A stretch of 64,000 nt of DNA from Euglena gracilis (Eukaryota). Position numbers and translations under genes: made by a program. Location: the NCBI GenBank assembly GCA_039621445.1, contig CP154954.1:22022954-22086953 (forward strand), given 5' to 3'. Within the stretch, counting starts at the first letter, position 1. Every line of letters starts with the position of its first letter. Positions 1 through 50,485 of this stretch are shown piece by piece. The notes under the pieces were generated by a model. The model made no database searches, was not told where the DNA came from, and worked only from the letters and a program-made list of their open reading frames with translations.

Positions 1-37
1 GATAGCCCCCGTACGGGGAAAACGACAACGCGGCAGA

Positions 38-1552
38 ATGCCGGGCCCCCGCCGGGTCACGCGATCAGAATCCCCATCTCCTCTCTTTTTTCGAGAATGG
101 GATTATTCCAAAGATGATTTTTACAATGATATCGTACAAAGATTGCGTAATGGTGAATTGATTGAGAATTACACCTTATCGCCTTTACGTTTGATTTTTC
201 GGAATGATACCGGATACAAGTACTGCATACCCTGTGACTTGGTTGATGACGTACTTTTGTGTTATCACAACCAAGGTCACCCTGGGGCCCCCAAACTTCT
301 TTCTTTGGTGGGTCGCAGGTACTGTACAACCCTCACCGAAAAAGAATTGTACAAGCGCTGTTTACAAATTTCACAACGGTGCCAAATTTGTCAAGCTGTG
401 AAACCGCGCAGAGGTACCCCCCCTGGTACGATGGACTTCTTCCCCGTACCAAATGACATTTTTACATCCCTCTGCATGGATTTTCTGGAACTTGAACCTT
501 GCAAAGGAACAGATGACAAAATTTACGATTACGTTCTTGTTGTCGTCTGTCGGCTGAGTGGGTACATTGTAGCCATTCCATGCCAGAAAGCAGGGTTGAC
601 AGCACAAGTTTTGGCACAAATGTTTTTAGAAAGATGCATTTGCCTCATGGGTTTACCGAATGAAATCGTGAGTGATCAAGACCATTTGATTTCTTCTCGA
701 TTTTTTACAACTCTTTGCGGTTTACTCGGAATTGAGCAGCATTTTTCTATCATTTACCGACCAAAAGGTAATGGTCGCGCTGAAGCGGCAGTGAAAGCTG
801 TAGTCAATATGCTACGACTTTCACTGGCCGAATCGCACAATGCCTGGCTACAAGTATTACCCTGGTGTTTATTTTATATCAACACTTTACCGGGGTTAAT
901 ACTACAATACTCACCGTACAAGATCGTCTTCGGACGAGACCCCCCAGCCATCGGCGACATCCCGTCAGAACGACCCGCTCGTTCTAGCGTGAGTTGCGAA
1001 ACATGGTTCTCTGAAGTAGAATCATTGCGCACGGATGTGCAAAAGCGCGTAGTCGCTATACATTTACAAAAACAAAAACAATTCTTACAAGAATACAAAT
1101 CACCGATATACAACCCAGGTGACCGCGTGTGGGTTCGGAACAGTAGAACCCGCATGCAATCCACGAAGTTGGACCCCCTCTGGATCGGGCCATGTGAGAT
1201 CCTCGACCGGTTGGGTACAAGTGGGCGCTACAAAGTCGCTTTACCCAACGGGGTTGAGGATGTGCACATGGATGACTTCAAACCATACTTGACTCCACCG
1301 AACGGTAAAGCAATACCCTGTCTCTACTTCAAACCACGGTCAAAACTGCCTGAAACAGATGATTTTGTCGTCGACAAAATCCTCGACCACAAAGTGGACA
1401 GGGGTATACACTACTGGAAAGTACGATGGAAAGGGTATGGTCCCGAAGAGGACACTTGGGAACCTGCAACTAGTTTTGTTGGTTACATCCAACAAGACTG
1501 GAAACTATGGAACAAAAGAAACAACATTGACATTTCTGTAAACATCTTCTAA
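38..1552 (+). CDS. pol: 3' end of Ty3/Gypsy pol: integrase with C-terminal chromodomain (pol probably begins upstream of the window)
   Basis: Zn-binding motif YHNQGH...CQIC; DDE core (CMDF, IVSDQD, NGRAE); GPY/F-like WIGPCEIL; chromodomain [10 protein letters not shown]...[17 protein letters not shown]; no stops in frame. Confidence 0.95.
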
Positions 1553-1601
1553 GGGATAATGTACAAATGTCCAAGATTTTGTCCATAGCCTGGACTTTTG
1601 A

Positions 1602-1647
1602 CAAAATGTATAATGGGCGGATGCCAAAATGTATAATGGGCGGATGC
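1602..1647 (+). repeat. 23-bp tandem duplication in the pol-ORF3 spacer
   Basis: caaaatgtataatgggcggatgc x2. Confidence 0.85.
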
Positions 1648-1872
1648 CAAACCATTTTGTCCCTAGCGAAGGACTTTTCGCTAAAGGACTACGGTCCTAT
1701 ACAAAGTACTTTTACACTTGGAGCTACAATTTTGATTTTACAATTATTGCAAACATACAATTATTTCTGTGTTTCTGTACACTTGGTTGCATGCGTACAA
1801 TGTTACCGTACAATGCCTTATTTCTCTGTTTCCCCACAGCTCAGTACTTGCTACTATCTGCTCTTTTTCAAG

Positions 1873-4800
1873 ATGGATGCTGGAGGAAGGGGACCTGGTC
1901 CCCCATCCTCCCAACCGTATGTTCCCCCTGGACAACCTCCTCCGGGAGGACCCCCTTACCCACAACCTCCTTCGGGAGGACGAGGACTTGTACTCCCTCG
2001 GGGAGAGCAAGTCCCCGGTCGGCATGTACAAGCTGCTTCGGCAGCAAGGCCCGTAGTGGCAACCCGTCCGTTACAAGCTGCTCCGGCAGCAAGACCCGTA
2101 GTGGCAAATCTCCCTGTGACTCAACATGCGGTTCCGCATGTTACCCCAGAACAAACTACACTTGGTGGCTTACAATCTCAACCTATGATTCCACAACAAA
2201 CGGAATCTGCCTATGAACAGTTTGCGGTGCCGCAACCGCGGCCCCCAAGGAGATACGATATGGCCAGTAGCAGTACCCAACGCGCTGCTTTTGCGGCTGC
2301 AGAGCAACAATATATACAATCGGAACAACGACAATGGGCTGAACAACTACGTAGTCACTATTACCCCGCACAACCGCCACAAGGGCAGTATGCCACACAA
2401 CCTCCACAAGGGCAGTATGCCACACAACCCCCACAAAGGCAGTATGCCGCTCCCGTGATGCCTCGGTTCCCCAAGTACATGGGTGAACTGACAACGGCTT
2501 CAACAGATACAATTCGGAACGCTCTGCGCATGTGCGCAGAGGACAGACCGGATCCCTTCATCCGAGTGATGTGGGATTCCTACTGCCGACAATTGCTTGC
2601 AATCGCCAACAAACCTATCGCCACCTGGGACATGTGGTCCCAGAGTACGATAGCTGGCAGAATTTTCTTCCAACCCGGAGAATCCGGATTTCCAGACAAT
2701 GTAACCCTCAGGGACCTGGGAGTCCTGGTCCCGCCTGTGCTCCGCGGAGTGCACCCAGTGGGTGCTTACGCGGAACACATGCGCCGCTATACTCCAGAAC
2801 TCACAGAAAGTGAGATGGGTGACGTACAAATGCAAGAACCAATATATTTACCAACACAACGGTTTTCTTCGCCCCCCGTCAGGCCGCCTGCCCGGAACTG
2901 GGAGGCTGGCACACAATCACAATACGCTATGGAGGCCGAAGAGCCATACGACGAACACTATCCTGAAGAACTGGCCGAAATGGCCGAATGTGACGAGTAT
3001 ACAACGGCAGAACCTGAGCCGGAGTATACCATGGAAACAGACGAACCACCACAACCCGTACAATCCGTACAACCCCAACCACCACAAGCTGTACAATCAC
3101 CGCAACCTGTACAATCTTCGCCAGAAACAGCCGCCGACAACCCCCAACCCCGCGTACCGCTGCCGGAACCGACAGCGATACGGGTTGTCGGAGAACACCC
3201 TCTGCATCCCGTAGTGGACAACATTCACTATGAACGAGTGCCACAATCTGGAGATTTTGCTTACACAACTCAGAACGAACAATACCTTCCACTCGACAAA
3301 ATTTACGAACTGGGATCCCATTTGGGAACCATCAACGTACAAGGAGTGATAACGGATGGAAGGGGACCAAACGCCAAAATTTTGGGTATTCCCACCTGGG
3401 CACTACCCCAAGTTTTACGTGTGAATGCACCCCCACATCCACCTGGTCCAACAGAACAACTCGCTTCTGCGTCGAACCTTGTGCCGCCAGTAGCTCAACC
3501 TACTCCGGCACCACAGACAACACCGGTACAAGCAGTTTCGACTGCACAATCGACTGCCACTCAGCCTGCCGCATCCGCAGCAGGTTCAAACCAACCTACA
3601 CCTATACAAAGAACAGGACCCCCTGCTCAAGCCGCGCAGTCGGCACGCGCAAAACCACCCGCACAATCTACAATTCCTGTACGGGTACCTCCTGTTACGA
3701 CCGCTCCACAACCTGTACCTTCACAACCGGCTTCGGCTGGACAGACACAACCACCTGTTGAACCGGGACAACCTTTCTCGGGTCAACCTCGGTTTCAGTC
3801 GCCAGCACAGCACGCTACTTACAAGGAAGCTCTACAACATTTAACAGCTCCAGCTAAACCCTACAACGTTGACGCACGCAAACGTCCGCGTGGACCGGAG
3901 TTTGCGACACCTCCACAAACACGTCCAACGCCCGACACACAACGTCGTCGTTTGGACGACAACCCACAAAGCGCGGACGCGCAACGAGATCGTCAGGACA
4001 ACGATGACCTGCCGATCCCGTCCAACGTACAACGATCTTTACAAGAAATCTATCATCTAATGCGTCCAGACAAGCCCTTCGACGACATCGCTGGACATTA
4101 CACCGCTGGTGTAACTGTTACAATGTGGAGAAAAACACGAGCATACCGAAAAGACGGTGCATACCGTTGGAACGAACAAGAGCGCGAAGCCGCAAAAGGA
4201 CAGAAAGGCCAGAAAGGCAAAGGAAAGAGCGAAGGCTCACCTGGTTACGACTTGGACGTACAATTTATGATTGACCATCTGTTCTGGATTTCAGACGGAT
4301 GTGATACAATTATGCACGAGTACTACGAGGGACAACACCCCTGGGTTGTTGCTCCCGAAGTACATCACAACATGGTCAAACTCTACAAGGAAAAAGCTCG
4401 TGGCTTTTTCTTCGACGGTACAATTTCCTGTTACGAAAGCCAGGATGGCATCGACAAATTGCCGGGTTTCTGGCAACTACTTTTCTGGCTTGGATTCCAT
4501 TGCCTGAACTTCGGTTCATTTGCAATGCCGGCCAGCAAAGCGCACTACTTGCCACATCCAAAGCTACAATACGGATGGGAATCATCCCTTGACGCACTGA
4601 AGACAATGTTCGACAATATCCGAGAAATCGGACCACAAGGCATACAATGGGAAGTATTCCCACTTCCAAAGGACATACAATTGGTCACACACGAAATGTT
4701 CTGTTACAATTACCAAATTTTCCTCAACGAACACTACGGCCCACACTTCCAAGTGGTCGGAATCGACCTGACATACCCACAAAAATTCGTGCTTTGGTGC

Positions 4801-7800
4801 ACCCACTGCCACCACAAGTTCCCCGTGGACTTCTGGGGCTTTGGCGTGCGCGGTCGGACAACCGACCGCCCAAATGCACAAAGGGCGCAGCCCCACCAAC
4901 GCGAATGGGCGGAGGCCCAACAACAACGAAGACTACTCGGACACATCTGCCACAATCCCCTCGAAGTCAGGGAAATCGGATACGCCAGACGAAACCACCG
5001 ACAAATGCTTCTGCATATGCAGACCTTCCAATGGAGAGCATGGGTGTCCTATGCTCTGGAAATCTACAACCTACTCAACCCAAAACAACCACTTCCACAG
5101 GAATACCTCCCTCTTCGACCTGCATGGGACGAAGAAGGAAAACGGAAGTACATCAAACGCCTGTTTGGCGAAACCCTCCGAAGAGAGGACTTTGCCCCAT
5201 TTTTCAAGGGGAAACGTACAAATAAGGATGGGTTGGCCATCCCGATACTGGACTGGCTTCCTCGCGGATTGGGAGGAAACAGATTTGTCGGATGGCAAAA
5301 CTTCCGTCTGCGACCACGTATAAGACTTCCTGAACCTGAACCTGAACCCCAGCCGGCGGAGTCCGAAGCAGCGCAGTCTGCAATTGAACAACCTATAATG
5401 GCTGCATCATCTACAACAACAACAACGAAGACAGCAGCGAAGCCTGCAACTAAACGTTCCGAAGAACGTTTACCTCCACCTTCACCTTCACCTTCACCTG
5501 CTCCTACAATGCCGGTGGAACATACACCCGTACACTCTTCGGACTCTTCATCCGTTTCCTCTTCTGGATCATCCGGCGATGAGGAAATGGAAGAAGGGAC
5601 AGACAATGAACACAGTACACGCTCCGTCTCCTCCGCATCTGTGGATTCTGAAAGCGGAGAAGGTAGCGTACAACAGGCTCTAAGGGCCGAAGTGCCACCC
5701 ACAACGCCTGTTCAGCAACGACCACAAACACCATTACCAGAAACAGAACCGGAGACACCTACGGAACCTCCAACGGCCGGACGGCCTACAACTCCCACAA
5801 TGGCCGAAATGCCTTCCGAAACCACGACAGCCCCTGTACCTTCGTCAGACACGGTTCCTTCCGTCTGGGCAAATGCGCCAGTCGTAAGAGAAATCACTGA
5901 CGAAGAACTGGCACAAAGATGGACAGACCCGAACGACTTTATACTTATACCACCCGAAGTCGGACGAGCCGCCGGACGCGTCCTCGGAAGCGTCCGAAGT
6001 GGCGTAGCCTCGATGGTTGCAATGGTGCGATCGAGGTCTTCTTCTTTGACGCGAAGTCCCCGCGACACGGGACTTGGCGAAGCAACCACACAAGAAGCTC
6101 CGGCTTCGACAACAACACTGGCCGCAGACGCGGTTGATGTCCAAACACCCGAAGCGGTGACAACAACCGAATCGACTACGGTCGAACAAACGCCAGCACA
6201 TGACACAACACCCGTAGTGGTACACACACCTGAACAGGTGGTACCGACGGCTGCTGACGTACCATCTAATACCACTACTACTACCACACCAACAGCCAAA
6301 CCTGCTCCAAAATCGCCTGCAGAACGCCCTCTTCCGCCGCAGCGGAAAGAGAAAGGCAGTAAGTCCAAAGCCAAACCTCAGCTTGCAGAACCATGCAAAC
6401 CGGCTGAGCGACACAACGAGCCAAAACCACCACCGCCTGGGAGTGGTAGCAAATCAGGAAAGAAGGCAAAAACCTCAGCCGCTACCACACCAGCCCCGAC
6501 ATATACCGAAGTGGCCGGGAAAAGCCGGGTCACTTCTACCATTCGAGGCAGAACGCGACAAGATACAACGTCGGAGACCTCACAAGATGACAACATGCCG
6601 GTTGATGATAATGCCACACTTTGGCAAGAAGACATTATCTCCAACCTGCCGAGCGTCGGAGAACGCATTGTCAACATACAATTAACACGCGAACGCGGAC
6701 AACTGTTGAACAAGTGGATTCAACCGCTTTTCTTCAACGAAGAGAGGTACAATTACTATGTTCGACATATTTGGCGATTCTACAATGCCAGATCACCAAG
6801 AGTGTTTGCCCAATACCTTGGGGAGACATTCCTGTTTGACAATCGGCCGAATGGCCAAACAACCTGGCTCTGTACAGTCTGTCACAACATCCGTAACAGC
6901 ATGCCCGCTGTGCATGTCTGTTATGCAGACAACAAACGGAAGAACTTTCACCACAATGAATTCGTGCCAAACACAGCCGCCCTGATTTGTGGTGATTGTA
7001 TGCTTGCCTGGAGAAAACTGAACAACTTCCGGTGGTCGGAAGAGGACAGAGACCGTGACGTACCAGTTTTCTGTGTCAACTGCCTACGGGCAGACATATG
7101 GTTGCCCGCAGATGGCGGAAATCTCAAGATCGTACCCGGAAACGAGGAAGGTCTTGAAGATTTCCTGAACTACTACAAATCGAAACGACAAATGTACCAA
7201 TTCAAAAGTTTCAAGAAAGCTGATGCTTTTGAGCGCGGCGGAATCGCCTTTGACTTCCAAACTGATTCCGGCGGAATCAGACTGGCTGTGGAATGTACAA
7301 AAGGGCGATTGCCCCTGCTGTTCAATGATGACGACTGGAAACGCGTCATCTACCCACTGTTTACAAAGCCTTCGAAGGTTTCTGAAACCACACAACGTTG
7401 GTTACTCCCTGAGTACCCACCAGAACGACATGGATACGAACACTATTCAGAATGGGTTGGCTCCATTCTGAAACCCCATATAACCCGTTGTGCCTGTGCA
7501 TCCCGCGTGCATAACGTTGATTTCAACGCTATGCCTGGCATGCCACCACAGGTACCAGCAAATCATCCAAGATGGAACTACTACATTTGGCCTGCAACTT
7601 TTCCGAGAGTTTTCTGGGAAAACTTGCAAATTTACCTCCACAAGCGAGCTGAAACGATCAGAACAGAACTTCCCAAGGAGATACAAGAAGTCAAAAGTTG
7701 GGTTATCCCCAGGATTGACATGGATAATCCTGACAAGGATACCCTGGACCTACGTCCAACCGAAATGACCTTGGTACAAGACCCACACATGGGTGAGTAC

Positions 7801-7824
7801 TTCAAGGAAACCCACAAACGTTGA
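1873..7824 (+). CDS. Large additional ORF (ORF3, ~1983 aa) between integrase and 3' LTR; Pro/Gln/Thr/Ser low-complexity tracts plus two globular Cys/His-containing regions; function unknown
   Basis: Frame is open from 1567 to 7824. The likely start MDAGG at 1873 follows pyrimidine-rich AG acceptors. Motifs WCTHCHHK...HIC and a C-terminal CTVC...HVC...CGDC...CVNC. Confidence 0.85.
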   Translation: MDAGGRGPGPPSSQPYVPPGQPPPGGPPYPQPPSGGRGLVLPRGEQVPGRHVQAASAARPVVATRPLQAAPAARPVVANLPVTQHAVPHVTPEQTTLGGLQSQPMIPQQTESAYEQFAVPQPRPPRRYDMASSSTQRAAFAAAEQQYIQSEQRQWAEQLRSHYYPAQPPQGQYATQPPQGQYATQPPQRQYAAPVMPRFPKYMGELTTASTDTIRNALRMCAEDRPDPFIRVMWDSYCRQLLAIANKPIATWDMWSQSTIAGRIFFQPGESGFPDNVTLRDLGVLVPPVLRGVHPVGAYAEHMRRYTPELTESEMGDVQMQEPIYLPTQRFSSPPVRPPARNWEAGTQSQYAMEAEEPYDEHYPEELAEMAECDEYTTAEPEPEYTMETDEPPQPVQSVQPQPPQAVQSPQPVQSSPETAADNPQPRVPLPEPTAIRVVGEHPLHPVVDNIHYERVPQSGDFAYTTQNEQYLPLDKIYELGSHLGTINVQGVITDGRGPNAKILGIPTWALPQVLRVNAPPHPPGPTEQLASASNLVPPVAQPTPAPQTTPVQAVSTAQSTATQPAASAAGSNQPTPIQRTGPPAQAAQSARAKPPAQSTIPVRVPPVTTAPQPVPSQPASAGQTQPPVEPGQPFSGQPRFQSPAQHATYKEALQHLTAPAKPYNVDARKRPRGPEFATPPQTRPTPDTQRRRLDDNPQSADAQRDRQDNDDLPIPSNVQRSLQEIYHLMRPDKPFDDIAGHYTAGVTVTMWRKTRAYRKDGAYRWNEQEREAAKGQKGQKGKGKSEGSPGYDLDVQFMIDHLFWISDGCDTIMHEYYEGQHPWVVAPEVHHNMVKLYKEKARGFFFDGTISCYESQDGIDKLPGFWQLLFWLGFHCLNFGSFAMPASKAHYLPHPKLQYGWESSLDALKTMFDNIREIGPQGIQWEVFPLPKDIQLVTHEMFCYNYQIFLNEHYGPHFQVVGIDLTYPQKFVLWCTHCHHKFPVDFWGFGVRGRTTDRPNAQRAQPHQREWAEAQQQRRLLGHICHNPLEVREIGYARRNHRQMLLHMQTFQWRAWVSYALEIYNLLNPKQPLPQEYLPLRPAWDEEGKRKYIKRLFGETLRREDFAPFFKGKRTNKDGLAIPILDWLPRGLGGNRFVGWQNFRLRPRIRLPEPEPEPQPAESEAAQSAIEQPIMAASSTTTTTKTAAKPATKRSEERLPPPSPSPSPAPTMPVEHTPVHSSDSSSVSSSGSSGDEEMEEGTDNEHSTRSVSSASVDSESGEGSVQQALRAEVPPTTPVQQRPQTPLPETEPETPTEPPTAGRPTTPTMAEMPSETTTAPVPSSDTVPSVWANAPVVREITDEELAQRWTDPNDFILIPPEVGRAAGRVLGSVRSGVASMVAMVRSRSSSLTRSPRDTGLGEATTQEAPASTTTLAADAVDVQTPEAVTTTESTTVEQTPAHDTTPVVVHTPEQVVPTAADVPSNTTTTTTPTAKPAPKSPAERPLPPQRKEKGSKSKAKPQLAEPCKPAERHNEPKPPPPGSGSKSGKKAKTSAATTPAPTYTEVAGKSRVTSTIRGRTRQDTTSETSQDDNMPVDDNATLWQEDIISNLPSVGERIVNIQLTRERGQLLNKWIQPLFFNEERYNYYVRHIWRFYNARSPRVFAQYLGETFLFDNRPNGQTTWLCTVCHNIRNSMPAVHVCYADNKRKNFHHNEFVPNTAALICGDCMLAWRKLNNFRWSEEDRDRDVPVFCVNCLRADIWLPADGGNLKIVPGNEEGLEDFLNYYKSKRQMYQFKSFKKADAFERGGIAFDFQTDSGGIRLAVECTKGRLPLLFNDDDWKRVIYPLFTKPSKVSETTQRWLLPEYPPERHGYEHYSEWVGSILKPHITRCACASRVHNVDFNAMPGMPPQVPANHPRWNYYIWPATFPRVFWENLQIYLHKRAETIRTELPKEIQEVKSWVIPRIDMDNPDKDTLDLRPTEMTLVQDPHMGEYFKETHKR

Positions 7825-8197
7825 GGGTTTCCTGTCTCGTACAATCAGCTTCGGCTGAAATGGGCGTAGTCCCAAACAATGAGCGAAGTCTCGAGCGTGT
7901 ATACGCATTTCATCATCGCCTTCAACGCCGTCCCAAGACACAATGGCGGAATCGCCTTAAGTTCGGTGGATAACATGTTGATCGCGAAGATTCAAGACCA
8001 CAAGGACACTACGGTGTCAAGTAAGAAGACGCACAAAGCACAGCATGCGCGTCAGAATTCTTTTGCGCTTTGTGCTCCAAACAAGGTAACCACAATTGGG
8101 AACCAGACCATGGTATCCTGGTACTGTCTCCCTGAACCTGGGACTGTGCCTGGCATCCCGACTGGCCTGGTCCAGAAGGGAAATCGGGCAGAGCCCT

Positions 8198-8207
8198 GGG
8201 AGGGGGA
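8198..8207 (+). promoter_or_regulatory. Polypurine tract (PPT)
   Basis: gggaggggga directly before the LTR start tgtgtacc. Confidence 0.85.
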
Positions 8208-8640
8208 TGTGTACCAGGCAGCCATTCTGCCATGGCACTGTGTACCAGATACAAGGGGCTACGGCCTACAACCTGGCTACGGCCGGGCCGTACACAGTGG
8301 CATGGTTAAAACCATAAGACAAAGAGAGAATCTCAGAGCTAGCGAAAGCTTAGCGAAAGTAACTGGTTCCTAATTCAAGGTTACAGGGTTTGGTGCTTTG
8401 CAATTCTGTTTTAGAATTCTGAGGGCGAAGTCCCATTTGAATAGAAGTTTTCTTTCTTTCTTTTACAAAGCTCGAAAGAGCAAAAGTCACAATCATATAA
8501 GGGACTGCGGTCCCACCAATTCTTCTGCTTGTGTGCTTTGCATTCAAAAGGGGAAAAGGGAAGCAAATTTTATTGTTACTCCCCCCACGTGCTTTTCAGG
8601 GGAATACCTTAAATAGAAAAGCCGGGGTGGGACGTACACT
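8208..8640 (+). mobile_element. 3' LTR of the chromodomain-Gypsy element (same family as the array LTRs, slightly diverged)
   Basis: TGTGTACC...GTACACT; colinear with the eight LTRs downstream; preceded by a PPT and not followed by a PBS. Confidence 0.92.
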
Positions 8641-8860
8641 AAGCCCCCCCACCTCTTTCCTCCGACAAGCATGGGGAAAGAGTCTTTGAACAGAAAATCT
8701 GAAAAACGATTCCAAACGAAACAAACTCTGGGCACTCCACCCCAAGGCCTAAGTCCCACGCTGCCCCCTTGGTTAAAATTCTTTCCTTTTTGCAGCTTTC
8801 ATTGTGTGAGACTTCATTTGTCCATTTTTTAAAAGAAAAATCAGGGTTTTTTGGGTGAAA

Positions 8861-9410
8861 ATCAAGCGCGTTGAATTGTGCTCACCTGCATCGACGTGGG
8901 TGTTGCGGTGTTCTGAACCTCACAATTGAAAATTTCATTTGTCTCCCCAAGCAAAAATGTGTATACCCGATATCAATTTTTCCGCAATTTCCGCAATTTT
9001 TCCGCAATTTTCCGCAATTTCCACAATTTTCCGCAATTTTCCGCAAATTTTCCGCAGTTTTTCCGCAATTTCCGCAATTTCTCACCATTTTTTTGAAGAA
9101 TTTTTTCCCCACCACCGAAGATGGAAGATGCAATGAGTTCAAGCCACTCTTCAAATGGATCAACAGGTGTGCTATTGTGTTCTGTTGTCCCCCCCAGTTT
9201 ACCAATTTTTTTCACAGGTGCACCACTGGTCACAGGATTGGGTGCGTCCCACCTGTGCAAAGAACATCAAGCGCGTTGATTTGTGCTCGCCTGCATCGAC
9301 GTGGGTGTTGCGGTGTTCTGAACCTCACAATTGAAAATTTCATATGTCTCCCCAAGCAAAAATTGTTTATACCCGATATCAATTTTTCCGCAATTTCCGC
9401 AATTTTTCCG
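8861..9410 (+). repeat. ~140-bp direct repeat pair (8861-~9003 and 9266-~9410) with an expanded (ttccgcaatt)n microsatellite
   Basis: atcaagcgcgttga...cctgcatcgacgtgggtgttgcggtg...cccgatatcaatttttccgcaa occurs twice; ttccgcaatt units at ~8980-9080. Confidence 0.8.
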
Positions 9411-9849
9411 ATATCAATTTCCCCCCCCTGCCTTAAGAAAAGGAGTGACCCCCCCCGGGGTCGGTAAGCAATTGTGCGGTCCCCCCCCCCCGCGGGCCAG
9501 GACGGGGGGACATCGCCCCAGGTGAACAGTGAGCAAAGCGCCGGGCCGAATTTTTTTGACCCCCCCCCAAAAGTTCCATTTTGGGCACTTTTTTTGGGCA
9601 AAAATGCAAAAAATTTTCGGCGCGAAACGTTGGAGGACAAGATTGACGCTTTTTGGGGGGGGTAGGGTCTGTCCGGACCCCCCTTGCACGTGGGGGGTAG
9701 TGGTCCGGACCTAACCCATGCACGCCCTCCCAATATCGAACCCTTGCTGTGCTCTTCAACCACGGGAAAAAAAAGGACACCTCGGGCTCCGCACTTTGCC
9801 CTTGTGAGGCCATGCCTTGTTCGCCGGCGAAAAAAGGCACAAGGTCTTG

Positions 9850-11299
9850 CCTTCAGGTCTATTTTTGCAGCCCAGTGGCCTTTTTCCAAAACTGGAAAAA
9901 TGTGCTGGATATGATCCAGCTTGAAGGGTTTTACTTGAAACTGCTGATTTAATTCTCTGCAGTCGCTGATCATTCTCCATTTGGTTGTTCCCCCTTCTGG
10001 TTTCGAAATTAGAAACCATGGGATTAAATGCTGGGTTTCTGAATCCCAAACTCGTTTTATTGACCCAGTTTTTTCGTAATCCAGCAGGATTTTTTCTGCC
10101 TGGTTCAGGTCCAGGTTGGCTCTGGGTTTTGGGTGGGTGGACAATTTTGGGGGATTTACCCAGGGGGGTTGGATTCCACTCTTGATCAATTGACATGTTG
10201 CCTGGGGGGCATGTTTTGACCACCATTTTAGACTTTTGTGAAGTCTTTGGTACAGGGGGGTATCTTCCCATTTTTCCTCCATGGAATTTATTTTCCCAAT
10301 TAGATGATTTTCTGGGTGCTGGGTGGGGGGTGTTGGACATTGCACCCCTGGTGTGAATTGAGCATTCTGCAAAGGTGTTTGGGGGGGTGTGCATGCTCTG
10401 CTCACAAACTCTTTGATCCTCCACTTTGTTGTTGGTGTTGTCAATTGACATACCATAGGGGCCCCTTTTTGGGTCTCCCCCTTGTTTTGACTTGCCCCTG
10501 CCATGGGCACTGAAGAATGAACTTGAGGGGGGGTGGCCCCCTTGTCCTCCATGGCCCCTTCTGGGGCATCCTCCTGAGCCTGCTTGAATAAAATATTGAA
10601 ATCCCCTGCTGGGGGACAGCTTTTTAGCTTCTGGGGGTTCTCCCCTTCTGATATTCGATGGCCCCAGTGGCCTTGATGATAATTCTGGCCCCACTGGCCC
10701 TCTGGAAATTTTGATAGTCTCCATTGACTTCTCTCTGATCTTGGGCGCCATGCCCATTGAAAATCTTGGGGGGCCTCTGTGGGCCATTCCTTTTCCCCTG
10801 ATGGGGTTTGTGATGAAGAAATGGTTGGGGGGGTGTTGTGGACCTGTCCTGCCCCTGCCACTGGGCATTTGTTTGTGGAATCGGCCACCCTGGCCTTGGT
10901 ATTGTTGGCCACACTGGCCTTTGTTCCATCGGCCACCATGGCCATTGCTGTTTTGGCCGCCCTGGCCCAGCTTGCTGTTGTGGCCGCCCTGGCCCAGCTT
11001 GAACACGGTATTGGTGTAACTGGCATAATGTTGGCCCCAATGGCCCTGGATCCAATGGCCATAGTGGCCCGCTGGTCGTTGCTTCTGCCCCTTTCGAGGT
11101 CTTCTGACCACTGTCTGCCAGGGTCCGTGGCCATCACTTTGGGGGGTTTGAGTTCTGGAAATTTCTGTGGGGGAAATTTCTTTTGGGGAAGGGGCAGCCA
11201 CGGCTCGCCACAGTTAAACCGCGTCGTCAGGTTGTCCAGCTTCTGCTGCTGCTGCTGCCCCTTGAAGTTCTCCAGCGCTGTGCTTCTTTGAAGTTGCAT
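9850..11299 (-). mobile_element. Truncated DIRS-like (tyrosine-recombinase class) retrotransposon: overlapping gag-like ORF and N-terminal part of RT
   Basis: WFLISKPEGGTTKWRMISDCRELNQQFQVKPFKLDH...AAKIDLK resembles the DIRS RT N-terminus and breaks before the expected DAY motif; overlapping Gly/Gln/Lys-rich ORF 9756-11201 in another frame. Confidence 0.7.
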
Positions 11300-11724
11300 C
11301 TTGCATTGAATTCTTTCGAAATGTCAACAACTTTTGATTTGAATTTCTGCACGAGCGTGAATTTCTGGATAGTTTGTATCGATTGATTGACTTCTTCTTT
11401 TCTCAATTGGTGAAGTCTTCGAAGTTCCTGTCTTCTGGGTGTCGAAGGGCAATTTAGGAATCAGCCAACTCCGGCGAAAAAAGGCACTAAGCAGGGACTC
11501 CTAACCCGACGCACCAAAACAAGGTCTTTGTGCTTCGCCCTCGGTGTCCCTTCCTCCCTGGTCGGTTTTCCTCGAGGGAGTACGAAGCCCAGTGACTGCA
11601 ACCACCTATTTCACGTACAAAGATCTGCCATCCCTGCCTGCATATTCTCAATCAAGCGGCAGCCAACCTTCATTCCCAGCTCCCTCCTAGTTGCCCCCCC
11701 CCCGACCAAACGCCCCGGGGAATT

Positions 11725-15422: not shown

Positions 15423-16224
15423 TGTGTGCGGCAGACGGGAGATCCTACGGAGGTTGGTAGCCGGCGCGTAGTACCAAGCTTAGTATCGCTCGAGTAGCTT
15501 ATTCGCTAAGGTGCTGGGCTCACACGCGGGAGGTCGTGGGTTCGAGACCCAGGTCCCGCCGTGTGAGTCCTGAACGATCCCGTACGGGCAGAGGGCATAC
15601 CGCGGGGATCGTTCGGCGCGCGCAACTGCGCAAATGGACGAGACAGTGGCTGGCCGGACCATGTGCGCAGTTCCCCGGCTGAGGACGAGCCACGGCAAGT
15701 AGTATGAGCTGTCCCGTGGCCGTCCAACGGCGGGTGGTGACAACCAACGCAAACATGGTAGCAGGGGAACCCGTCTAATGCCACACGAACCGGGAAATCA
15801 CAGCCTGACCCCACGGCGCCCGGAAGGCGGAGGCGGACGCGCCGAGTCTAGGGCGACTGAAACTCCTACACCGTTCCAAAAGCCTCAAGCCGATGCTAAG
15901 GGGGACGCTCCAAGGCGGCAGAGCCCGTGGAAGTCGACAACACGTAAACTGCCGGCAATAGCAAACCCGAGCTGCAGGGGTCGGCGGCCTGGTGACGCAG
16001 TACTCGTGAGAAGCACTCAGCCAACTAGGGCCGTGTGAGGCATAACCCGAGCTGCAGGGTGACGCAAGAGGCTAGTGTAGTAAGGCTCTTGGGAGGGGAG
16101 TGTGTGCGGCAGACGGGAGATCCTACGGAGGTTGGTAGCCGGCGCGTAGTACCAAGCCGAGTATCGCTCGAGTAGCTTATTCGGTAAGGTGCTGGGCTCA
16201 CACGCGGGAGGTCGTGGGTTCGAG
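15423..16224 (+). mobile_element. TRIM (non-coding LTR element): intact LTR 15423-15755, PBS from 15756, internal region, PPT 16091-16100, second LTR from 16101 interrupted at 16224 by the Gypsy insertion
   Basis: LTR TGTGTGCG...CGCAAACA (333 bp); PBS tggtagcagg; PPT gggaggggag; the LTR start recurs at 16101. Confidence 0.9.
15488..15560 (+). promoter_or_regulatory. tRNA-Val(CAC)-derived Pol III-type internal promoter within the TRIM LTR (not a functional tRNA)
   Basis: A-box-like tagcttattcg(c/g)taag; anticodon-loop-like ctCACac; variable loop gaggtc; T-arm tggg-TTCGAGA-ccca (B-box ggttcgagacc); the acceptor stem does not pair. Confidence 0.7.
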
Positions 16225-33083: not shown

Positions 33084-33761
33084 TCGAGACCCAGGTCCCG
33101 CCGTGTGAGTCCTGAACGATCCCGTACGGGCAGAGGGCATACCGCGGGGATCGTTCGGCGCGCGCAACTGCGCAAATGGACAGTGGCTGGCCGGACCATG
33201 TGCGCAGTTCCCCGGCTGAGGACGAGCCACGGCAGGTAGTATGAGCTGTCCCGTGGCCGTCCAACGGCGGGTGGTGACAACCAACGCAAACATGGTAGCA
33301 GGGGAACCCGTCTAATGCCACACGAACTGGGAAATCACAGCCTGACCCCACGGCGCCCGGAAGGCGGAGGCGGACGCGCCGAGTCCAGGGCGACTGAAAC
33401 TCCTACACCGTTCCAAAAGCCTCAAGCCGATGCTAAGGGGGACGCTCCAAGGCGGCAGAGCCCGTGGAAGTCGACAACACGTAAACTGCCGGCAATAGCA
33501 AACCCGAGCTGCAGGGGTCGGCGGCCTGGTGACGCAGTACTCGTGAGAAGCACTCAGCCAACTAGGGCCGTGTGAGGCATAACCCGAGCTGCAGGGTGAC
33601 GCAAGAGGCTAGTGTAGTAAGGCTCTTGGGAGGGGAGTGTGTGCGACAGACGGGAGATCCTACGGAGGTTGGTAGCCGGCGCGTAGTACCAAGCCGAGTA
33701 TCGGTCGAGTAGCTTATTCGGTAAGGTGCTGGGCTCACACGCGGGAGGTCGTGGGTTCGAG
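33084..33761 (+). mobile_element. Circularly permuted TRIM unit: right LTR half (to 33292), PBS, internal region, PPT, left LTR half (33638-33761)
   Basis: Near-identical to 15542-16224. Confidence 0.9.
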
Positions 33762-41539: not shown

Positions 41540-42222
41540 TCGAGACCCAGGTCCCGCCGTGTGAGTCCTGAACGATCCCGTACGGGCAGAGGGCATACCG
41601 TGGGGATTCTTCGCCGCGCGCAACTGCGCAAATGGACGAGATACTGGTTGGCCGGACCATGTGCGCAGTTCCCCGGCTGAGGACGAGCCACGGCAAGAAG
41701 TATGAGCTGTCCCGTGGCCGTTCAACGGCGGGTGGTGACAACCAACGCAAACATGGTAGCAGGGGAACCCGTCTAATGCCACACGAACCGGGAAATCAGA
41801 GCCTGACCCCACGGCGCCCGGAAGGCGGAGGCGGACGCGCCGAGTCTAGGGCGACTGAAACTCCTACACCGTTCCAAAAGCCTCAAGCCGATGCTAAGGG
41901 GGACGCTCCAAGGCGGCAGAGCCCGTGGAAGTCGACAACACGTAAACTGCCGGCAATAGCAAACCCGAGCTGCAGGGGTCGGCGGCCTGGTGACGCAGTA
42001 CTCGTGAGAAGCACTCAGCCAACTAGGGCCGTGTGAGGCATAACCCGAGCTGCAGGGTGACGCAAGAGGCTAGTGTAGTAAGGCTCTTGGGAGGGGAGTG
42101 TGTGCGGCAGACCGGAGATCCTACGGAGGTTGGTAGCCGGCGCGTAGTACCAAGCCGAGTATCGCTCGAGTAGCTTATTCGGTAAGGTGCTGGGCTCACA
42201 CGCCGGAGGTCGTGGGTTCGAG
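41540..42222 (+). mobile_element. Circularly permuted TRIM unit (LTR end 41753, PBS 41754, LTR start 42099)
   Basis: Near-identical to 33084-33761. Confidence 0.9.
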
Positions 42223-42876: not shown

Positions 42877-45800
42877 ATGCAAAGCGCACATGCGCACACT
42901 GGAAACGCACCCATTAACTATGCTTTGTTAATAGGTTCGCTTCGTGGACTGCATAATGCAGACGAAGTCGCTACGGCGACAGGAAAATTTTCCTTACAAG
43001 GGGCGGATGCCCAAGTCGCTTTAGCGACAGAAAATTTTTATCCACAAGGGGCGGATGCCCAAGCCGCTTCTGCGGTGGAAAAATTTTCCATACAAGGGGC
43101 GGACGCCCAAGCCGCTTCGGCGGTACCCCCCCCCCCCCACAACTGGGTTTTCGAACCCAAACTGCATTAGCGGTGCCCCCCCCTACAACAAGCCGCTTCG
43201 GTGGTGCCCCCTCCCCCTCCAAGGGTCTTCGGACCCAAGCTGCTTCGGCGGTGCCCCCCCCCCCCCTCCAAGGGTCTTCGGACCCAAGCCGCTTCGGCGG
43301 TGCCCCCCCTCCCCTTCCAATGGTCTTCGGACCCAACCCGCATTCGCGGACCCACCGTTATAACAGCCGCATTTGCGGTACAACATAACCCTACAATGGG
43401 TCTTCGGACCCCCTCCGCTTCTGCGGAGTCTGACTCACAAGTGGGCAGAATGCCCGAACGGGACTGGCAATTAGTGCCTTTTGGCACCCAATTGCCAACA
43501 GAGCCCCCCCCTTACGAGGACGGGTTGGAAACACCTTGTTTTTTCAAACCCCCCCCAGCCCTACCTCCGGTAAGCCCCATTCGGGACTTGCCCCCCCCTC
43601 CACAATTGGGAGAAATCCCAGAACTACCTTGGTCCGCTGAAATGCGGTTGGTGGTCCCAGACACTGCCGGTGTCATTGTTCCTATGGACAATGACCCCGA
43701 GGAAGACCGGGATTCGTTCTCCAGTAATACCGTTGAGCGCGTAGTCGCAATATCACCGGAGAACCACCCACTACAACAGCAATTTCGACACATCGAAGCA
43801 TGTGTCCAAAATTGCGCTAAAACACTGAACCAAGTCCTACAATTTGATGAAGACAGTCACAATGCCGTTTTCGGCAAGCTGGACTTCCTTTGGCAATATA
43901 TCCAAGAATTTGGACAATTTTGCCAAAAGAATTTCAACTCCACTACAATGGACCTCCAGAACCTCCACCAAGGTTTTGACGCATTTTTGCGCGACACCTT
44001 GGTGCACAACTTCCAACGGGCACAAGAGACCTTCCAAACCGCGGAATCGCGGAATAACGCAAAATTTTCACATTTACAACAAAATCTACAACAATTGTTC
44101 ACACAACTGGAAAACTTTTCTTATACAATGCAAGAAATGCAGTCCCGCCTACAACAACGGAATAAAGCGCCTACGGGTGCGGAACTTGGCTCATATGTCT
44201 CATATGAGCACTTCTCAACTTTGTCCAATGTTGTACAACAGTCCCAAGAACGCATTTTGTGTTTGGGTGATGAAAACGCGAGATTTCATCAAAATTGTGC
44301 ACAAATACGCGAAAACTATGTACAAAGAGCTTTTGCTCAACAACTGGAAGAGCGGATTGCTCGTTTGGAACAAACTTCCTGCAAATGCGGTGAAGTTTCC
44401 CACAATTTGACCACATTGCACACTCAGGTGGCGGAAATCGCGCATCGGCAAGATTTCCTCCATGAAAAGTGGCAAAACGACATACAAAAACTTGAAACTG
44501 CTTCCAACGCCTTACAAACCGCTACGGCGGAACTCCAATCCCGCGATGCGGTGATTCTTAGCTTACAAACCGCGAACGCGGAACTCCAAGACCGAGAAAC
44601 GGTCATAACTACCATCCAAACCGCGAATGCAGACCTCCAAATTGCGTTTGCAGACCTGAAAACCGCTTTTGCGGATGTTTCGGGACTACAAACTGCAATT
44701 GGGGACTTACAACGCCGCTTTGCGGAAACTTCCACAAAAAATCCCAGTATGGGAGCATTACGATCCACTGTAACCGATTTGCACAATCAGTTACAAGCGG
44801 ATGTGAACAAAATCGAATCCGCGTTTGCGGATTTGCACAAACGGTGCAACGGTATTCAAAACTCAATTCCGGATATCACCGGCATTGAAACCGCACTTGC
44901 GGTTTTGAATACCCAACACAAAACCTTACAATCCACCACTTCCCATTTACAAAAACGCATACAAACACTTTCTACAAGGGTCTCCGGACTCCAACCATCC
45001 TCGCCTGGACGAACGGTTCGCGAAGGCGAACTACCCCTTGATTTTCGCACATTTTACGACCAAATGCTTGCGAAAAATCAGGAAAACTTACAAGAATTTT
45101 GTGAAACCTTGATGAGGACCGAAAATTCGGTCACCCAACAAGTTCTCACACTAAAACAACAAATTTCGGTGTTGGAGAACCAACTTTCTACAATGATGGA
45201 TGACAAAACCGCTGAAAATGCAGTAGGGGTACCCCAACCCACGTTGGGTACCACAACCCCACAAACCGAGAATCGGTTGAACGCCCTTACAACCGCAATG
45301 GAAACTTTGGTTAAGCGGGTCCAATTCTTGGACACCACTTTCCCAAAGCTTTCAGTGGATTTTGACTCCATTGTTGACAAACTACCACTTTTGGATGAGT
45401 TACCCTCACACCGCAAACGTATTAAGCGTTTGCAGGGTGATGTTGAACGAATTTCGGACCTTTTACAAGTGGTTGGTTCATTGGAACAAAGTATCCAAAA
45501 TTTTGCATTGAGTTTGGATGAGATTCCTGCAAAATCCCGCAACCCCCCGCACTTTGCCCCTGAAAACCGTGTTTTCGGTGGTCAAAATGCAACTTCCAGC
45601 TCACAACGCGCTTTTCGCGCATCAACCGAAGCATCTTCGGATGCCCGACATCCAACTCGCGACTTTGTGCATCAAATTCGCGATTCGTTGGATGCCAATC
45701 CTTCCAAAAGCGCAGTATGCGCACCCTTACAAGCATCTGCCGATGCGCATGCCCTACAGGCATCCACGGATGCACATGATCATGAACATGCCTACAATCG

Positions 45801-48800
45801 CGATTACAATCGCCCGTTTATACCACAACTTAAGATTCCCCCCCCTAAGGGTGAATCTTCGGATGATGAACCGGTTTTTACCACAAAAACCGCGAATCAT
45901 CCGGTTTCACAACAAGAAATTCGCGAATCGGGACTGATTCATGGTATGAGCCATACCCCTACCCCGGGTATTGGCCATGGATCGCGAATGCGAAACACGG
46001 AATTTACCGCGGTTCCCCGATTTGCGGGTGAACAACGGGATTCCTACCCCCCTGGTATGTTGCCAGTCGCGGAATCGCGACCCTTTACAATCCGAATCGC
46101 GGAATCGCGAACCACAACCATACAATTCGCGGAATTGCGATGTACCAAATACCCATGGTACCTGCGGTACCATGAGAATCATTATGGATGCGCATTCGTG
46201 CATGCCACAACAACAACCTTACCCCAACAATTACGATGGAAATCGCGGTCTACAACGTGATTTCAAAGGTACAATCACAATTGCCAATAAGGTTAAGCCA
46301 CAATGGGACGGAGATCCCACAACTTGGAAACAATTTTGGCGCGACTGGACATACTACTGGGACTTGAAGGGTCCAACCCAAGACGGGAACCCTGAGGTAA
46401 TCAAGATGGAATTCATTGATTGTCTCCCCAAGGAAGAAAAAGATCGTGCCCGACAACTTGTGATCCGGAATCGGATTACTTTTGATGAACTGGTTGACCA
46501 ATATGCGTCAACTTGTTCAAGCCTAATTTCGCGAATTACGCTGGAGAAAAAATGGTGGCAATTCGCGCCCAGTGACCGAAAATGGAAGTCAATCGACCTT
46601 TGGTATTCCAAATGGTTGGGATTGGCTTCTGAGGTTGATGAACTGGGAGAGAACCAAATGAAAGAACAAATTGATGCGGTTCTCCTCCATTTCATTCCTA
46701 CAATTATCAAAGACATTCACCATGAGGAACTCTCCGACAACAAACTTACGCTTGAACAACGATGGAACTATGTTTCCAAACAAATGAAACTCTCACAACT
46801 TTTGGGACAGATACAATCGGCTTACACCCACCACCCTACCGCTGGTCTCCCTAGCGGTACGGTAAGTGCCCTACAAAAGACTTCTTCTCCAAAATCCCCA
46901 CGGGGATACGGTAAACATACAAACTCCCCAAAGGGAGATACAAAAACGCGCTATCCGCGCTCATCTGACCAATCGTCTGACAAAACTTGCTTTTTGTGCA
47001 ACAAATCGGGACATACGTCCCGTGACTGCCCCCACCCTGATACGCGAAAGCGGTATCAGAGTCCAAGGGGTTCACAATCCTCATGGAGCTCGCGCTCCTC
47101 CGGATATTCGCACAAATCTGGACAATCACAATCGTCGGGTTATCGACAAAGGTCTCGATCACCGTTCCGCGACCGCGGACGCGATCGCGCACCTCCGGGT
47201 CGATCACCCCGACCCCCTTACAAACGTGATACAAATCGCGACTCATCGCGATCACGTTCGCGAAGTGGATCATCTTCTTCGCGATCGTCATCCGGGAAAC
47301 CGGATTACAACAAGAACCGTGGTCGAACGGGATTCCGTTCACCAAGACCTCCAAGGGGTAAAAGGCCATCACAAAACCGACAACAGTCACAAAACCGACA
47401 AAAGTGTTCCCTTTGTGGATCACATAACCACCATTCGTCCAAATGTTACCGTTCTCGCTCTCCCCGCCCGAACCAACGTCACCACAATGATACAAAACAC
47501 AACAACAAACACAAGGTCGAGTTCAAAATCTCCTCTTTAGAGGAGGGAACCCCGGCTTCGGGCAGGGAGGGGGATGAGAACTCCGAATCCTCGTTGGAGG
47601 ACGACCGCAATGCGGTCCGCGCATTGCGCGCTATCTACTCACACAAGAAAACGATAAACAGCCGCAGTGCTGAATCGGACTTGGAGTAGGGGAGCCCGAG
47701 GTCTGTGGGCACGGACCTCTGGGCTGATGAACAGACGGAAGTAGGACCTGATCAACCTTACTTTCCCTGCCCATCTGCCTTTTTGGTCGGTACCCGGAAA
47801 ATTTTCGGGTCCCCCACCCCCCACTCCAAATTTCTGCCTGGAATGCTGCGCAAAGTTGGAAGGGGATCCTGGAATAGTTGGAGAGACAACAATTTCACAC
47901 CGGATCCTGCACTTTGCGTACCCCCCATGGAACGTTTGGTCCAAGCGGAAATCCGAACACAAAATTTTTCTACCAAATGCAAAATTTTGGTCCACACAGG
48001 GTGTCGAATTCCCCTTCTCTTTCGAACGGGATTAATTCCCAACTCCCTCTTGGTGAAAGCCAAGTACCCCATCAAAATTATGACTGCTGACAACAGCCCC
48101 ATGTGTGGTGGTGACTTGGGATGCTTTTTGGACATACTCCTCCCCATCATCCCCAAGCACCACTCACAGCCCCCACACATACAAAATGTTCTGGGTACCT
48201 GGAGTTACGAATCGGGTATTCGCGGCTCTGACGTAATTTTGGGTTTTCCGTTCTTGCGTCAGAACCGCCTTATTGTGGATTGCCCCTCCCTCGGTTTGCG
48301 CACTACTTCACGCACACAACCCACACCACCGAATTTCTCCCACCAAGGCATCTTCCCAGATGTCCCCCCGCCTTGCCACAACGTTTTCTACAACCGAAAA
48401 CACCGTTTCCTACCCTAGGGGTAAAGAGAAAGCTGCACCCCTGCCCACTACACTTTTACCGCACGTTTCCCATGCGGTAGGGAAAGCGAGTAGCCTAACC
48501 CCCCACGTTTCACTGGGTTCCAAGGCGAAAGCCCAAAGGCCTGAAGAAATTTCGGTGTCGAGTGGCCGCCCAGCTGCACAACTTTTACGTTTTCCACCAG
48601 GTGTGTCGATTTGGGACACCCCTGTACACCCCCACCGCAGCTACAACTTTCAACACCCCCATACACACACTACACATGACTGACATGCACTACCAGACCG
48701 ACACCTCCTACCAATGCGCACATTGCCGGAGAATTTCCACACAACCTGATTTCGACTGTGGTTGTACTGTTGAACCTTCCAAACTAATCGCTTTACACAA

Positions 48801-50485
48801 CAACCAGAGTACACTTGGTACCGGAACCGGTCCCGAGGTTACCCTGACCGCTGAACGAGAACACAACACACCGGGTTGTTACCCGTTGTGTGTCGAAGTA
48901 CATCGACATTTGGACAAACGCGGAATCGCGTCCCTGTTCGGAATCACGAGAATCGCGCAGCAGGACCTCCAATGGCAGAAAGCCAATGTCTCCGACCCCG
49001 AATGGCAGAATGCCAACCCCTCTAATGCCCCTGCATACAAGTGGCAGAATGCCAACGACAATCGTCCTCTACACAATACACCTGATACACCTGGTATAAT
49101 GCCTGATGAAGTGTCTTCGGACACAACGTATTACCGATGTGGCTGGGAAAACTGTGTTTCAGCCCTCCATAGGACTGAAACCGCAACAGTTTTCGCGAAC
49201 CGCATCTGGAATGCGTTCAATTTTGGACAATACCGCATTTTGGAAACTTGGTTTTCCAAAAACGCACAAATCGCGAAGTCGATGGACCTACAATTGGAGA
49301 TTGACGCATTCTCGTCCAAAGCACATTCTCGTTTATCCAATTACTGGTCAAGCCATACAAATGCGTTTGATAAGTTTTGGGGTGATGTGGTCCTGTGGCT
49401 ACATCCTCCTCTGAAACTTATCCCCCTTGTTGTTGACAAGATCCTTTGGGATCAAGCACGCGGTGTGCTGCTCATTCCTATAAATCCCGAAGCGGAATCG
49501 TTCCAACAACTGACGTATGTCACTTTTCAGTGGTGGGATTTACCGAATGACACCCCTTTGGTTGAATATTTTTTGCGGTGTCATGTTACCACCATTGAAA
49601 GAAATCATTTTTCGTGTTTGTTTCTTTGATGCATTCGGAACTGTTGACCACACTGACAAATTCCTACGGGATAAAGGTCAGAATGACCTAATATACCAAC
49701 TATCCGCAGTGATAGAAAGCGGTGGGCAACATCCCAAATCACAAGAACTATGTACAAAGATCAATCGCGAATTCAGTGATGTTTTAGAACATCCTCTCTA
49801 TGCCCATGACATAGATCCTGCAATTCGCGGACCTTTCGGTGTCTGTAAAATCGAACTCAAAGAAGGTGCACAGCCCATGCACCGAAAATTCTTTCGCTGG
49901 TCAGGCGAAAGGGAACAAGCTCTCAATACAATGATCGAAAAACTGATTGAACGAAAATGGATCATACCCTCCAAAAGCGAGTGGACCTCACAACCTTTTG
50001 TTGTACCCAAGCCTCCCGATGCTTCTGGAGAGAAGAAGTGGAGACTTCTGCTGGATTACCGTTACTTGAACTCACAGACAAAAGACGATCCATTTCCGTT
50101 ACCACTTATCGAGGACCTGATTACAAAACAAGCGGAAAACCGCCTTTGGTCGGTTTTCGACTTAGAGGATGGTTTTCACCAGATGCACTTACACCCTGAC
50201 TCACAGCCATACACCGCAATTTTAACCTCCCGCGGAGTTTACCAACGGACGGTGTTACCAATGGGTTTTAAGAATGGCCCAGCCATGTTCCAAAGAATGA
50301 TACGATGTATTTTACGAGACTTACCGTTTGCAATGGTATACATTGATGACGTGCTGATTGGCACACCTCCTCCACTTACAAATTCGGGTAGAGATATCCT
50401 TGATATTCACTACTGCGATATACGTTCCGTACTGACAACGTTTCACAAGCATTTGCTTCTCGACAAAGGTGCGAAAATGCATTTG
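42877..50485 (+). pseudogene. gag (42877-47689, the most complete copy) and truncated pol (47690-50485), copy 4
   Basis: Long ORFs 43201-46260 and 45971-47689; protease Asp mutated (VHTG); same RT breakpoint. Confidence 0.9.

Follow-up and report, generated by a model that had tools for sequence, protein, structure and literature searches.

A probable accessory gene of 1,983 codons behind the integrase of a high-copy Ty3/Gypsy chromodomain retrotransposon

The DNA analysed here, a stretch of 64,000 nucleotides (nt) of contig CP154954.1 that we call the window, begins inside a long terminal repeat (LTR) retrotransposon, and behind the integrase of this element lies a giant open reading frame (ORF), designated ORF3. 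The extra genes that LTR retrotransposons carry reveal the ways in which such elements cope with a host, and a role is known for very few of these genes. Our results indicate that ORF3 is probably a genuine accessory gene of a very high-copy, recently active Ty3/Gypsy chromodomain retrotransposon, and we infer a function for its product.

ORF3 lies between the integrase and the 3' LTR

The window opens with the 3' end of a pol gene (Table 1). In this region, Pfam searches returned Chromo (E = 2.6e-09), rve (3.4e-09), SH3_Tf2-1 (6.1e-07) and Integrase_H2C2 (4.3e-06), the first two and the last exceeding their gathering thresholds. The closest sequence in the Protein Data Bank (PDB) is the Ty3 Gag-Pol protein (7q5b, residues 1089-1420, E = 4.8e-16), and the chromodomain matches MPP8/HP1 in the PDB sequence search. 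The predicted H2C2 domain, DDE core and C-terminal chromodomain together place the carrier among the Ty3/Gypsy chromodomain retrotransposons, or chromoviruses. A Ty3-like reverse transcriptase (RT; PDB 4ol8, E = 6.9e-34) is encoded in sister units with the same LTR further along the window; the RT of the ORF3 copy itself would fall upstream of the window.

Table 1. Positions of the features at the ORF3 locus, numbered from the first nucleotide of the window
Feature	Position	Strand	Remarks
3' end of pol	2..1552	+	Integrase (H2C2 zinc domain, catalytic core, SH3-like domain) and C-terminal chromodomain; stop TAA 1550-1552
A+T-rich spacer, 320 nt	1553..1872	+	GC 0.39; open in the ORF3 frame; in-frame ATGs at 1567, 1606, 1621, 1636 and 1813
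ORF3	1873..7824	+	1,983 amino acids (aa) from ATG 1873; stop TGA 7822-7824
Blocks A and B (residues 200-345 and 440-520)	2470..3432	+	N-terminal third; defined by composition only; outside the sensitive search
Block C (residues 790-1150)	4240..5322	+	Aromatic-rich; preceded by a Lys/Gly-rich basic patch; YPQ..C..C......DFWGF motif conserved
Block D (residues 1331-1390)	5863..6042	+	Short non-repetitive island in a long linker; kept in fragmentary relatives P0014 and P0019
Block E (residues 1575-1983)	6595..7821	+	C-terminal; eight conserved Cys/His; PGMPPQ..ANHP..N..IWP motif conserved
3' untranslated stretch	7825..8197	+	Between ORF3 and the purine tract
Polypurine tract (PPT)	8198..8207	+	10 purines; adjoins the LTR directly
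3' LTR, 433 nt	8208..8640	+	Begins TGTGTAC, ends GTACACT; unrelated DNA downstream at this copy

Eight further copies of the LTR, 93-95% identical, occur in the window, all of them downstream. Six of these then carry an identical TGG-initiated, primer-binding-like sequence, and the other two border a flank that starts with the five bases ending the upstream flank, which is a target site duplication. Both the primer-binding-like site and the 5-bp duplication were seen at the sister copies only and not at the copy at 8208-8640; in the public reads described below, a contig of run X16 extends from 8640 into the primer-binding-like sequence of those copies. From the repeated copies, the primer-binding-like sites and the target duplication we therefore conclude that 8208-8640 is a genuine LTR of an integrase-mobilised family. 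The purine tract before it and the unrelated DNA after it are what a 3' LTR is expected to look like.

A preliminary description of the locus, made from the sequence alone, had placed an uninterrupted sense ORF of about 6 kb between the integrase-chromodomain stop and the PPT/3' LTR, and the coordinates bear this out. Under the standard code the frame is open from 1531 to the stop of ORF3. Its first in-frame ATG, at 1567, would give 2,085 codons; the ATG at 1873, from which we count ORF3, has A at -3 and G at +4. The remaining frames of 1873-7824 contain no ORF longer than 220 aa. Tandem Repeats Finder detected eight tandem repeats within ORF3, and all eight periods (27, 9, 33, 18, 9, 24, 6 and 6) are divisible by three. 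In the linkers, G+C at third codon positions is 0.33-0.40, against an overall GC of 0.54-0.57. Because the repeat periods are all multiples of three and the third-position G+C of the linkers is low, the low-complexity parts of ORF3 look coding too.

By position, ORF3 belongs to the class of additional ORFs (aORFs), which lie beyond gag-pol, in sense orientation, between pol and the PPT. The evidence that it is located within the element comes from the PPT-LTR junction and the read data instead of an LTR pair. A nested element is unlikely, since ORF3 has neither direct nor inverted repeats at its flanks.

ORF3 contains conserved Cys/His blocks

About 60% of ORF3 is linker rich in P, Q, T, A and S, with proline alone accounting for 12%. 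Five non-repetitive islands stand out from it, blocks A to E, of which C and E are the large ones. The preliminary description had noted a CxxC...HxC pattern at about 4050-5330 and a C-terminal CxxC...HxC...CxxC...CxxC pattern at about 6600-7800, and we located both. In block C they are C976-x2-C979 and H1024-x-C1026 (nt 4798-4950). In block E they are C1667, C1670, H1681, C1683, C1706, C1709, C1734 and C1737 (nt 6871-7083), with the spacing C-x2-C-x10-H-x-C-x22-C-x2-C-x24-C-x2-C, the simplest reading of which is a C2HC site and then a C4 site of putative zinc ligands. The basic patch ahead of block C, found also in three relatives (P0011, P0017 and P0020), may point to binding of nucleic acids. 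An hhalign comparison of blocks C and E detected no relationship between them (probability 0.2).

We searched residues 784-1983 of ORF3 with full HMMER (phmmer) against 1.84 billion representative proteins. The search gave 18 matches at E<=1e-3, six at E<=1e-10 and one at E<=1e-30, all to short proteins of 74-689 aa. Seven of the 18 fall on block E at 27-47% identity, among them P0003 (E = 3.7e-50) and P0004-P0009, and six fall on block C at 23-48% identity (P0011, P0015-P0018 and P0020, E = 1e-08 to 4.4e-04). The other five are fragmentary, partly frame-shifted close relatives over the linkers and block D; the linkers are matched by close, fragmentary relatives only. Two of the 18 are named, P0003 and P0004, which are Euglena gracilis transcripts covering consecutive parts of block E at 41-47% identity, and on this ground a euglenid is the probable host. 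A genome laden with repeats, as described for Euglena (PMC11252322, PMC6366073), agrees with this. The two transcript names are absent from the five supplementary files of PMC6366073 examined (proteome and transcript tables).

The putative ligands are retained in these proteins. In alignment A1 (block E), the three relatives whose sequence runs intact across this region (P0003, P0005 and P0009) have all eight, and P0006 has the four that it covers. In alignment A2 (block C), the CxxC and HxC pairs are kept in five of six relatives and the last Cys is invariant. The two large blocks are thus conserved at the protein level in distant relatives, and this conservation, at 23-47% identity, is our main argument that the ORF3 protein works.

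Beyond these relatives, no known family was recognised. ORF3 has no Pfam family at E<=1, no NCBIfam match and no PDB sequence at E<=1. Members of A1 and A2 gave five single-member Pfam matches at chance level (best E 0.048), and profile searches of the PDB gave no significant match (best E 0.75 for A1 and 0.4 for A2). Metagenome scans with alignment A3 and with block E confirmed nothing, and a viral scan found no relatives of ORF3. A word-index protein search found none for residues 720-1150 among proteins of near length and none for residues 1575-1983 among shorter proteins; the same kind of search with A1 against longer proteins revealed no fused long form, which is weak evidence. In the Protein Atlas, the best score for block E (0.78) is at chance level and block C had no usable match.

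The AlphaFold2 (AF2) model of block C has a core of about 110 residues at a predicted local distance difference test (pLDDT) score of 65-89 (model residues about 190-300). Compared with the PDB, this model gave no Foldseek match at E<=0.001, and with the VIA aligner the best Z was 3.7, with none of 48,161 chains at Z>=5. Within the reach of these models, AF2 and the fold searches show neither a known nor a new fold.

Several familiar protein classes were considered and rejected. The preliminary description had read the C-terminal pattern as RING/PHD-like and had named a ubiquitin ligase as one possible product. In the RING/PHD cross-brace consensus there are eight ligands, with pairs 3-4 and 5-6 just 2-3 residues apart, and the PHD finger has the ligand order C4HC3. 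In block E the middle pairs are 22 residues apart and the order is C2-HC-C2-C2. The spacing does not fit a RING finger, and neither zf-RING nor a related Pfam family was found at E<=1 in ORF3 or in any of the nine A1 members; a PHD finger likewise had no Pfam match in ORF3 or A1 members. None of the zinc-finger families in Pfam matched ORF3 or its relatives. An envelope (env) protein was also rejected, in agreement with the preliminary description. No membrane-like segment is present, the highest 19-residue Kyte-Doolittle mean being 1.24 in ORF3 and 1.31 in its upstream extension (usual cut-off 1.6), and no env family occurs among the Pfam matches. ORF3 shares with retroviral and errantiviral env genes its place after pol and a splice acceptor candidate just upstream of its start codon, but it differs in having no signal peptide, membrane anchor or env family match. 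The absence of any Pfam family at E<=1 likewise led us to reject a Dam or DNMT methyltransferase module in ORF3.

ORF3 is part of a very high-copy family

The abundance of the element was assessed from contigs of public sequencing runs placed on positions 1-10000 of the window; summed word depth, used below, is not a copy number. Fourteen DNA runs of one organism contain 70-77% of the sampled words of ORF3. One of these, X1, yielded 47,942 contigs in this region, of which 18,233 are 90-95% alike, 18,136 are 95-99% alike and 11,573 are at least 99% alike. The family is very abundant and includes many near-identical copies. The summed word depth of X1 is 69k-461k in bins of ORF3, 352k-365k in integrase-chromodomain bins (1003-1670) and 722k-899k in the LTR. 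Depth is thus of similar magnitude along the stretch and about twice as high in the LTR, as a single repeat unit would show. Contig #22 of run X16 (94% alike) bridges the end of ORF3 and the LTR (7809-8221). Given the read abundance and the PPT-LTR junction, we assign ORF3 to the element, whose family is very high-copy and recently active; it is not a single-copy host gene.

Contigs of one RNA library (X15) and of two probable RNA runs cover ORF3 piecewise, and contig X15 #15 covers 7815-8084 with two differences. Among eight listed ORF3 contig pieces with gaps, five have gap totals divisible by three (6, 12, 12, 12 and 21) and three do not (2, 2 and 22); in the contig data, a +1/-1 pair of indels seven bases apart restores the frame. 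A sequence seen as a loose end upstream of 8165 in other copies is absent from the window.

At 5345-6012, in the linker that separates block C from block D, the depth of X1 drops to 69k-177k. Several runs share a 12-nt in-frame deletion at 5477, and linker lengths vary among copies.

The spacer upstream of ORF3 and routes of expression

The true start of ORF3 is uncertain, since the spacer upstream of 1873 is open in the same frame, which is rare by chance. Between 1531 and 1872 the ORF3 frame has no stop in 114 codons, against a mean of 6.7 in shuffled sequences, and just 13 in 20,000 shuffles were free of stops; the remaining two frames have six and four stops. The codon-usage score of the spacer (0.088) is below the minimum of in-frame ORF windows (0.113) and above the maximum of off-frame windows (0.071). 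Counting all frames, the spacer has eleven ATGs ahead of 1873. A long pyrimidine tract ends in AG at 1838-1839, 33 nt before ATG 1873, and judged by its sequence is a good candidate 3' splice site.

The spacer also contains a perfect 23-nt tandem duplication (2.2 copies, 1602-1651), which the open frame reads in two frames. If the spacer is coding, the part upstream of the duplication would be out of frame in copies that lack it.

Three routes of expression can be envisaged. With spliced-leader trans-splicing at 1840, the first ATG of the RNA would be the one at 1873; removal of a 302-nt intron, from GT at 1538 to AG at 1839, would fuse the integrase-chromodomain in frame to ORF3; and an unspliced RNA could be translated from ATG 1567. 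Euglena is described in parts of PMC6366073 as using both trans-splicing and cis-splicing.

Discussion

Taken together, the position of ORF3, the abundance of its family and the conservation of its blocks favour a genuine accessory gene. The preliminary description had proposed an accessory protein kept intact, for example an anti-silencing factor or a ubiquitin ligase. Much of this stands, namely a sense accessory gene behind the integrase, unlike env, in an abundant family and with conserved blocks; the ubiquitin-ligase role does not. The ORF3 protein would be soluble rather than membrane-bound and would consist of folded modules joined by disordered linkers rich in P, Q, T and A. Its zinc sites may number about three, with a C2HC site in block C and both a C2HC and a C4 site in block E. 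Such a protein could act as a multivalent scaffold that binds the nucleic acid or the nucleoprotein particle of the element, and might so aid particle assembly or nuclear delivery. It would be expressed from a processed RNA using the acceptor that ends at 1839.

Several observations weigh against this interpretation. Structure prediction lends no direct support to the proposed scaffold and zinc functions: the AF2 models, built from small alignments, have a mean pLDDT of just 36.7 in block E, too low to be used, and of 50.3 in block C, with no fold match. The 19 listed majority differences in ORF3 (of about 650) comprise seven synonymous and 12 non-synonymous changes, which is no clear sign of purifying selection. 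The G+C content of ORF3 (0.52) exceeds that of the integrase (0.46), as a captured gene might show. The 5' LTR and the rest of this copy lie beyond the start of the window. As for expression, the RNA libraries possibly contain DNA; no splice junction or spliced leader was seen, with none at these sites among 15 of 135 contig joints; and a probable-RNA contig (X17 #25, 1761-2436) passes unspliced through the acceptor.

One alternative is that ORF3 is made as a C-terminal extension of Pol and not as a separate protein. Splicing of the 302-nt intron would delete the pol stop, the fusion would lose the last four residues of the integrase-chromodomain, and ORF3 would act at integration, for example in the choice of target. 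The donor, tct|GTAAAC, falls on a codon boundary of pol and the exon beginning at 1840 on one of ORF3; the interval is A+T-rich (GC 0.39), has a pyrimidine tract before its AG, and spliced pol genes occur in plant Ogre elements. However, one GT in three would be in frame by chance, and three of the ten GTs between 1400 and 1570 are. The contig joints mentioned above include no such joint, the start context of ATG 1873 is good, and the open ORF3 frame across the supposed intron is left unexplained. We regard a Pol extension as unlikely. It is also possible to see in ORF3 a host gene, or fused pieces of host genes, captured fairly recently and carried without serving the element. ORF3 has no retroelement domain, its composition differs from that of the integrase, and its E. 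gracilis relatives are ordinary transcripts. Against this, genomic reads cover all 6 kb as abundantly as the integrase, in copies 90% to more than 99% alike; the relatives are all short unnamed fragments, several of them degenerate as transposon copies are; no known host family matches; and a useless load of 6 kb would be expected to vanish fast from an actively copying element. Recent capture thus appears very unlikely.

ORF3 could finally owe its intactness to youth, as an undecayed copy, or be a separate gene or nested element caught between a truncated Gypsy element and a solo LTR, in either case with no role in the element. An LTR pair is indeed not visible in the window, and the neighbouring array, described below, shows that rearrangement occurs in this LTR family. 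We give this reading scarcely any credence: distant relatives conserve the blocks at 23-47% identity, the purine tract adjoins the LTR and no primer-binding site follows it, as for a 3' LTR, no terminal repeats flank ORF3, and read depth is continuous over both junctions.

Additional ORFs of LTR retrotransposons are a known class; new here are the size, the chromovirus carrier, the probable euglenid host and the two orphan, putatively zinc-binding domains with relatives elsewhere. In plant Ty3/Gypsy elements, aORFs reportedly include the post-pol ORFs of Ogre/Tat/Retand and the env-like ORF of Athila. Like ORF3, these are sense ORFs placed after pol and before the PPT/3' LTR, they belong to unusually long elements, and they have no recognised domain. 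In contrast to the carrier of ORF3, the plant lineages have no chromodomain, and their ORFs are far shorter, with no detected sequence similarity to ORF3; a protist host and conserved Cys/His blocks further set ORF3 apart. The P6 protein of caulimoviruses (ORF VI) is an inclusion-body matrix protein and translational transactivator. It resembles ORF3 in being encoded directly downstream of a reverse-transcribing pol gene, in being a non-membrane, multi-domain protein and in its disordered stretches, and it is made from its own RNA. ORF3 differs in lacking a Pfam Cauli_VI match, in being about four times larger and in belonging to an LTR element rather than a pararetrovirus, so that this comparison is an analogy only. 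A scaffold role for ORF3 would resemble P6, or the additional ORFs of plant Ogre/Retand, in role and not in sequence.

Closer in host are the DAM-LTR/EpiLTR elements of E. gracilis, which passages of a recent preprint (bioRxiv 10.64898/2026.05.21.726589) describe as structurally complex chromodomain LTR retrotransposons with extra modules beyond gag-pol. These extra modules are Dam and DNMT methyltransferases within or appended to pol, and ORF3 has neither; main-text passages of the same account contain no ORF3-like ORF.

A bolder proposal, which we consider quite unlikely, is that ORF3 founds a hitherto undescribed, euglenid-wide family of retrotransposon-borne zinc-binding proteins, on which the success of giant chromoviruses of about 17-18 kb would depend. 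Its protein would be made by spliced-leader trans-splicing of the genomic RNA of the element or as an alternatively spliced integrase-chromodomain-ORF3 fusion, and would act on chromatin or in particle assembly. If true, this would be a new kind of accessory function for a retroelement. ORF3 is in any case exceptionally large, its carrier family fills a sizeable part of a repeat-rich protist genome, and its domains are conserved across distant relatives and match nothing known. If the host is a euglenid, ORF3 would be a test case for the use of spliced-leader trans-splicing by a retroelement for a downstream gene. The two orphan domains merit family definitions, so that annotation stops labelling them as hypothetical host genes.

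Other retroelement sequence in the window

The remainder of the window is all retroelement sequence. Positions 15541-64000 form a higher-order tandem array of the LTR family of the ORF3 element. Its basic arrangement, which occurs three times, is a 684-nt host flank and, after it, LTR-internal-LTR units of about 8.2 kb. The copies of the flank (15541-16224, 33084-33761 and 41540-42222) are followed by two, one and at least three internal parts, respectively, and TCGAG is duplicated at both ends. Read across the duplication (16160-16224 with 33084-33110), the target of the element in the array resembles a tRNA T-arm; ARAGORN and Rfam found no tRNA or SINE there, and Rfam gave no match in the whole window.

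Each internal part contains a 1,029-codon coiled-coil frame, a CCHC gag-like frame, a sub-threshold Dam stretch and the N-terminal two-thirds of a Ty3-like RT, which breaks off where the next LTR starts, with no purine tract between them. On the scale of the Ty3 polyprotein the array stops at residue 757, and the integrase at the start of the window begins at 1089. If the array units are the 5' half of the same family, the full element would measure about 17-18 kb. The 1,029-codon frame (43171-46260 and sister units), upstream of the gag-like frame, has no family match and is, after ORF3, the second large coding region of this LTR family that lacks an explanation; its product shows no similarity to ORF3. 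The Dam stretch (48499-49629), between the gag-like frame and the RT, matches the Pfam adenine methyltransferase family Dam at E 0.0099 (16 bits against a cut-off of 28.1) and has no PDB sequence match. It may be related to the DAM-LTR elements of E. gracilis.

Between the ORF3 element and the array, the minus strand of 9230-11323, a stretch that is also highly repeated in the reads, holds an open frame of 697 codons whose central part has an RT-like motif. The frame, probably a piece of another retroelement, has no Pfam, NCBIfam or PDB match. A 149-nt segment is duplicated at 8857-9004 and 9262-9410 with 96% identity, and each copy is followed by a 10-nt satellite, of which about ten copies of the unit TTTTCCGCAA lie at 8978-9080.

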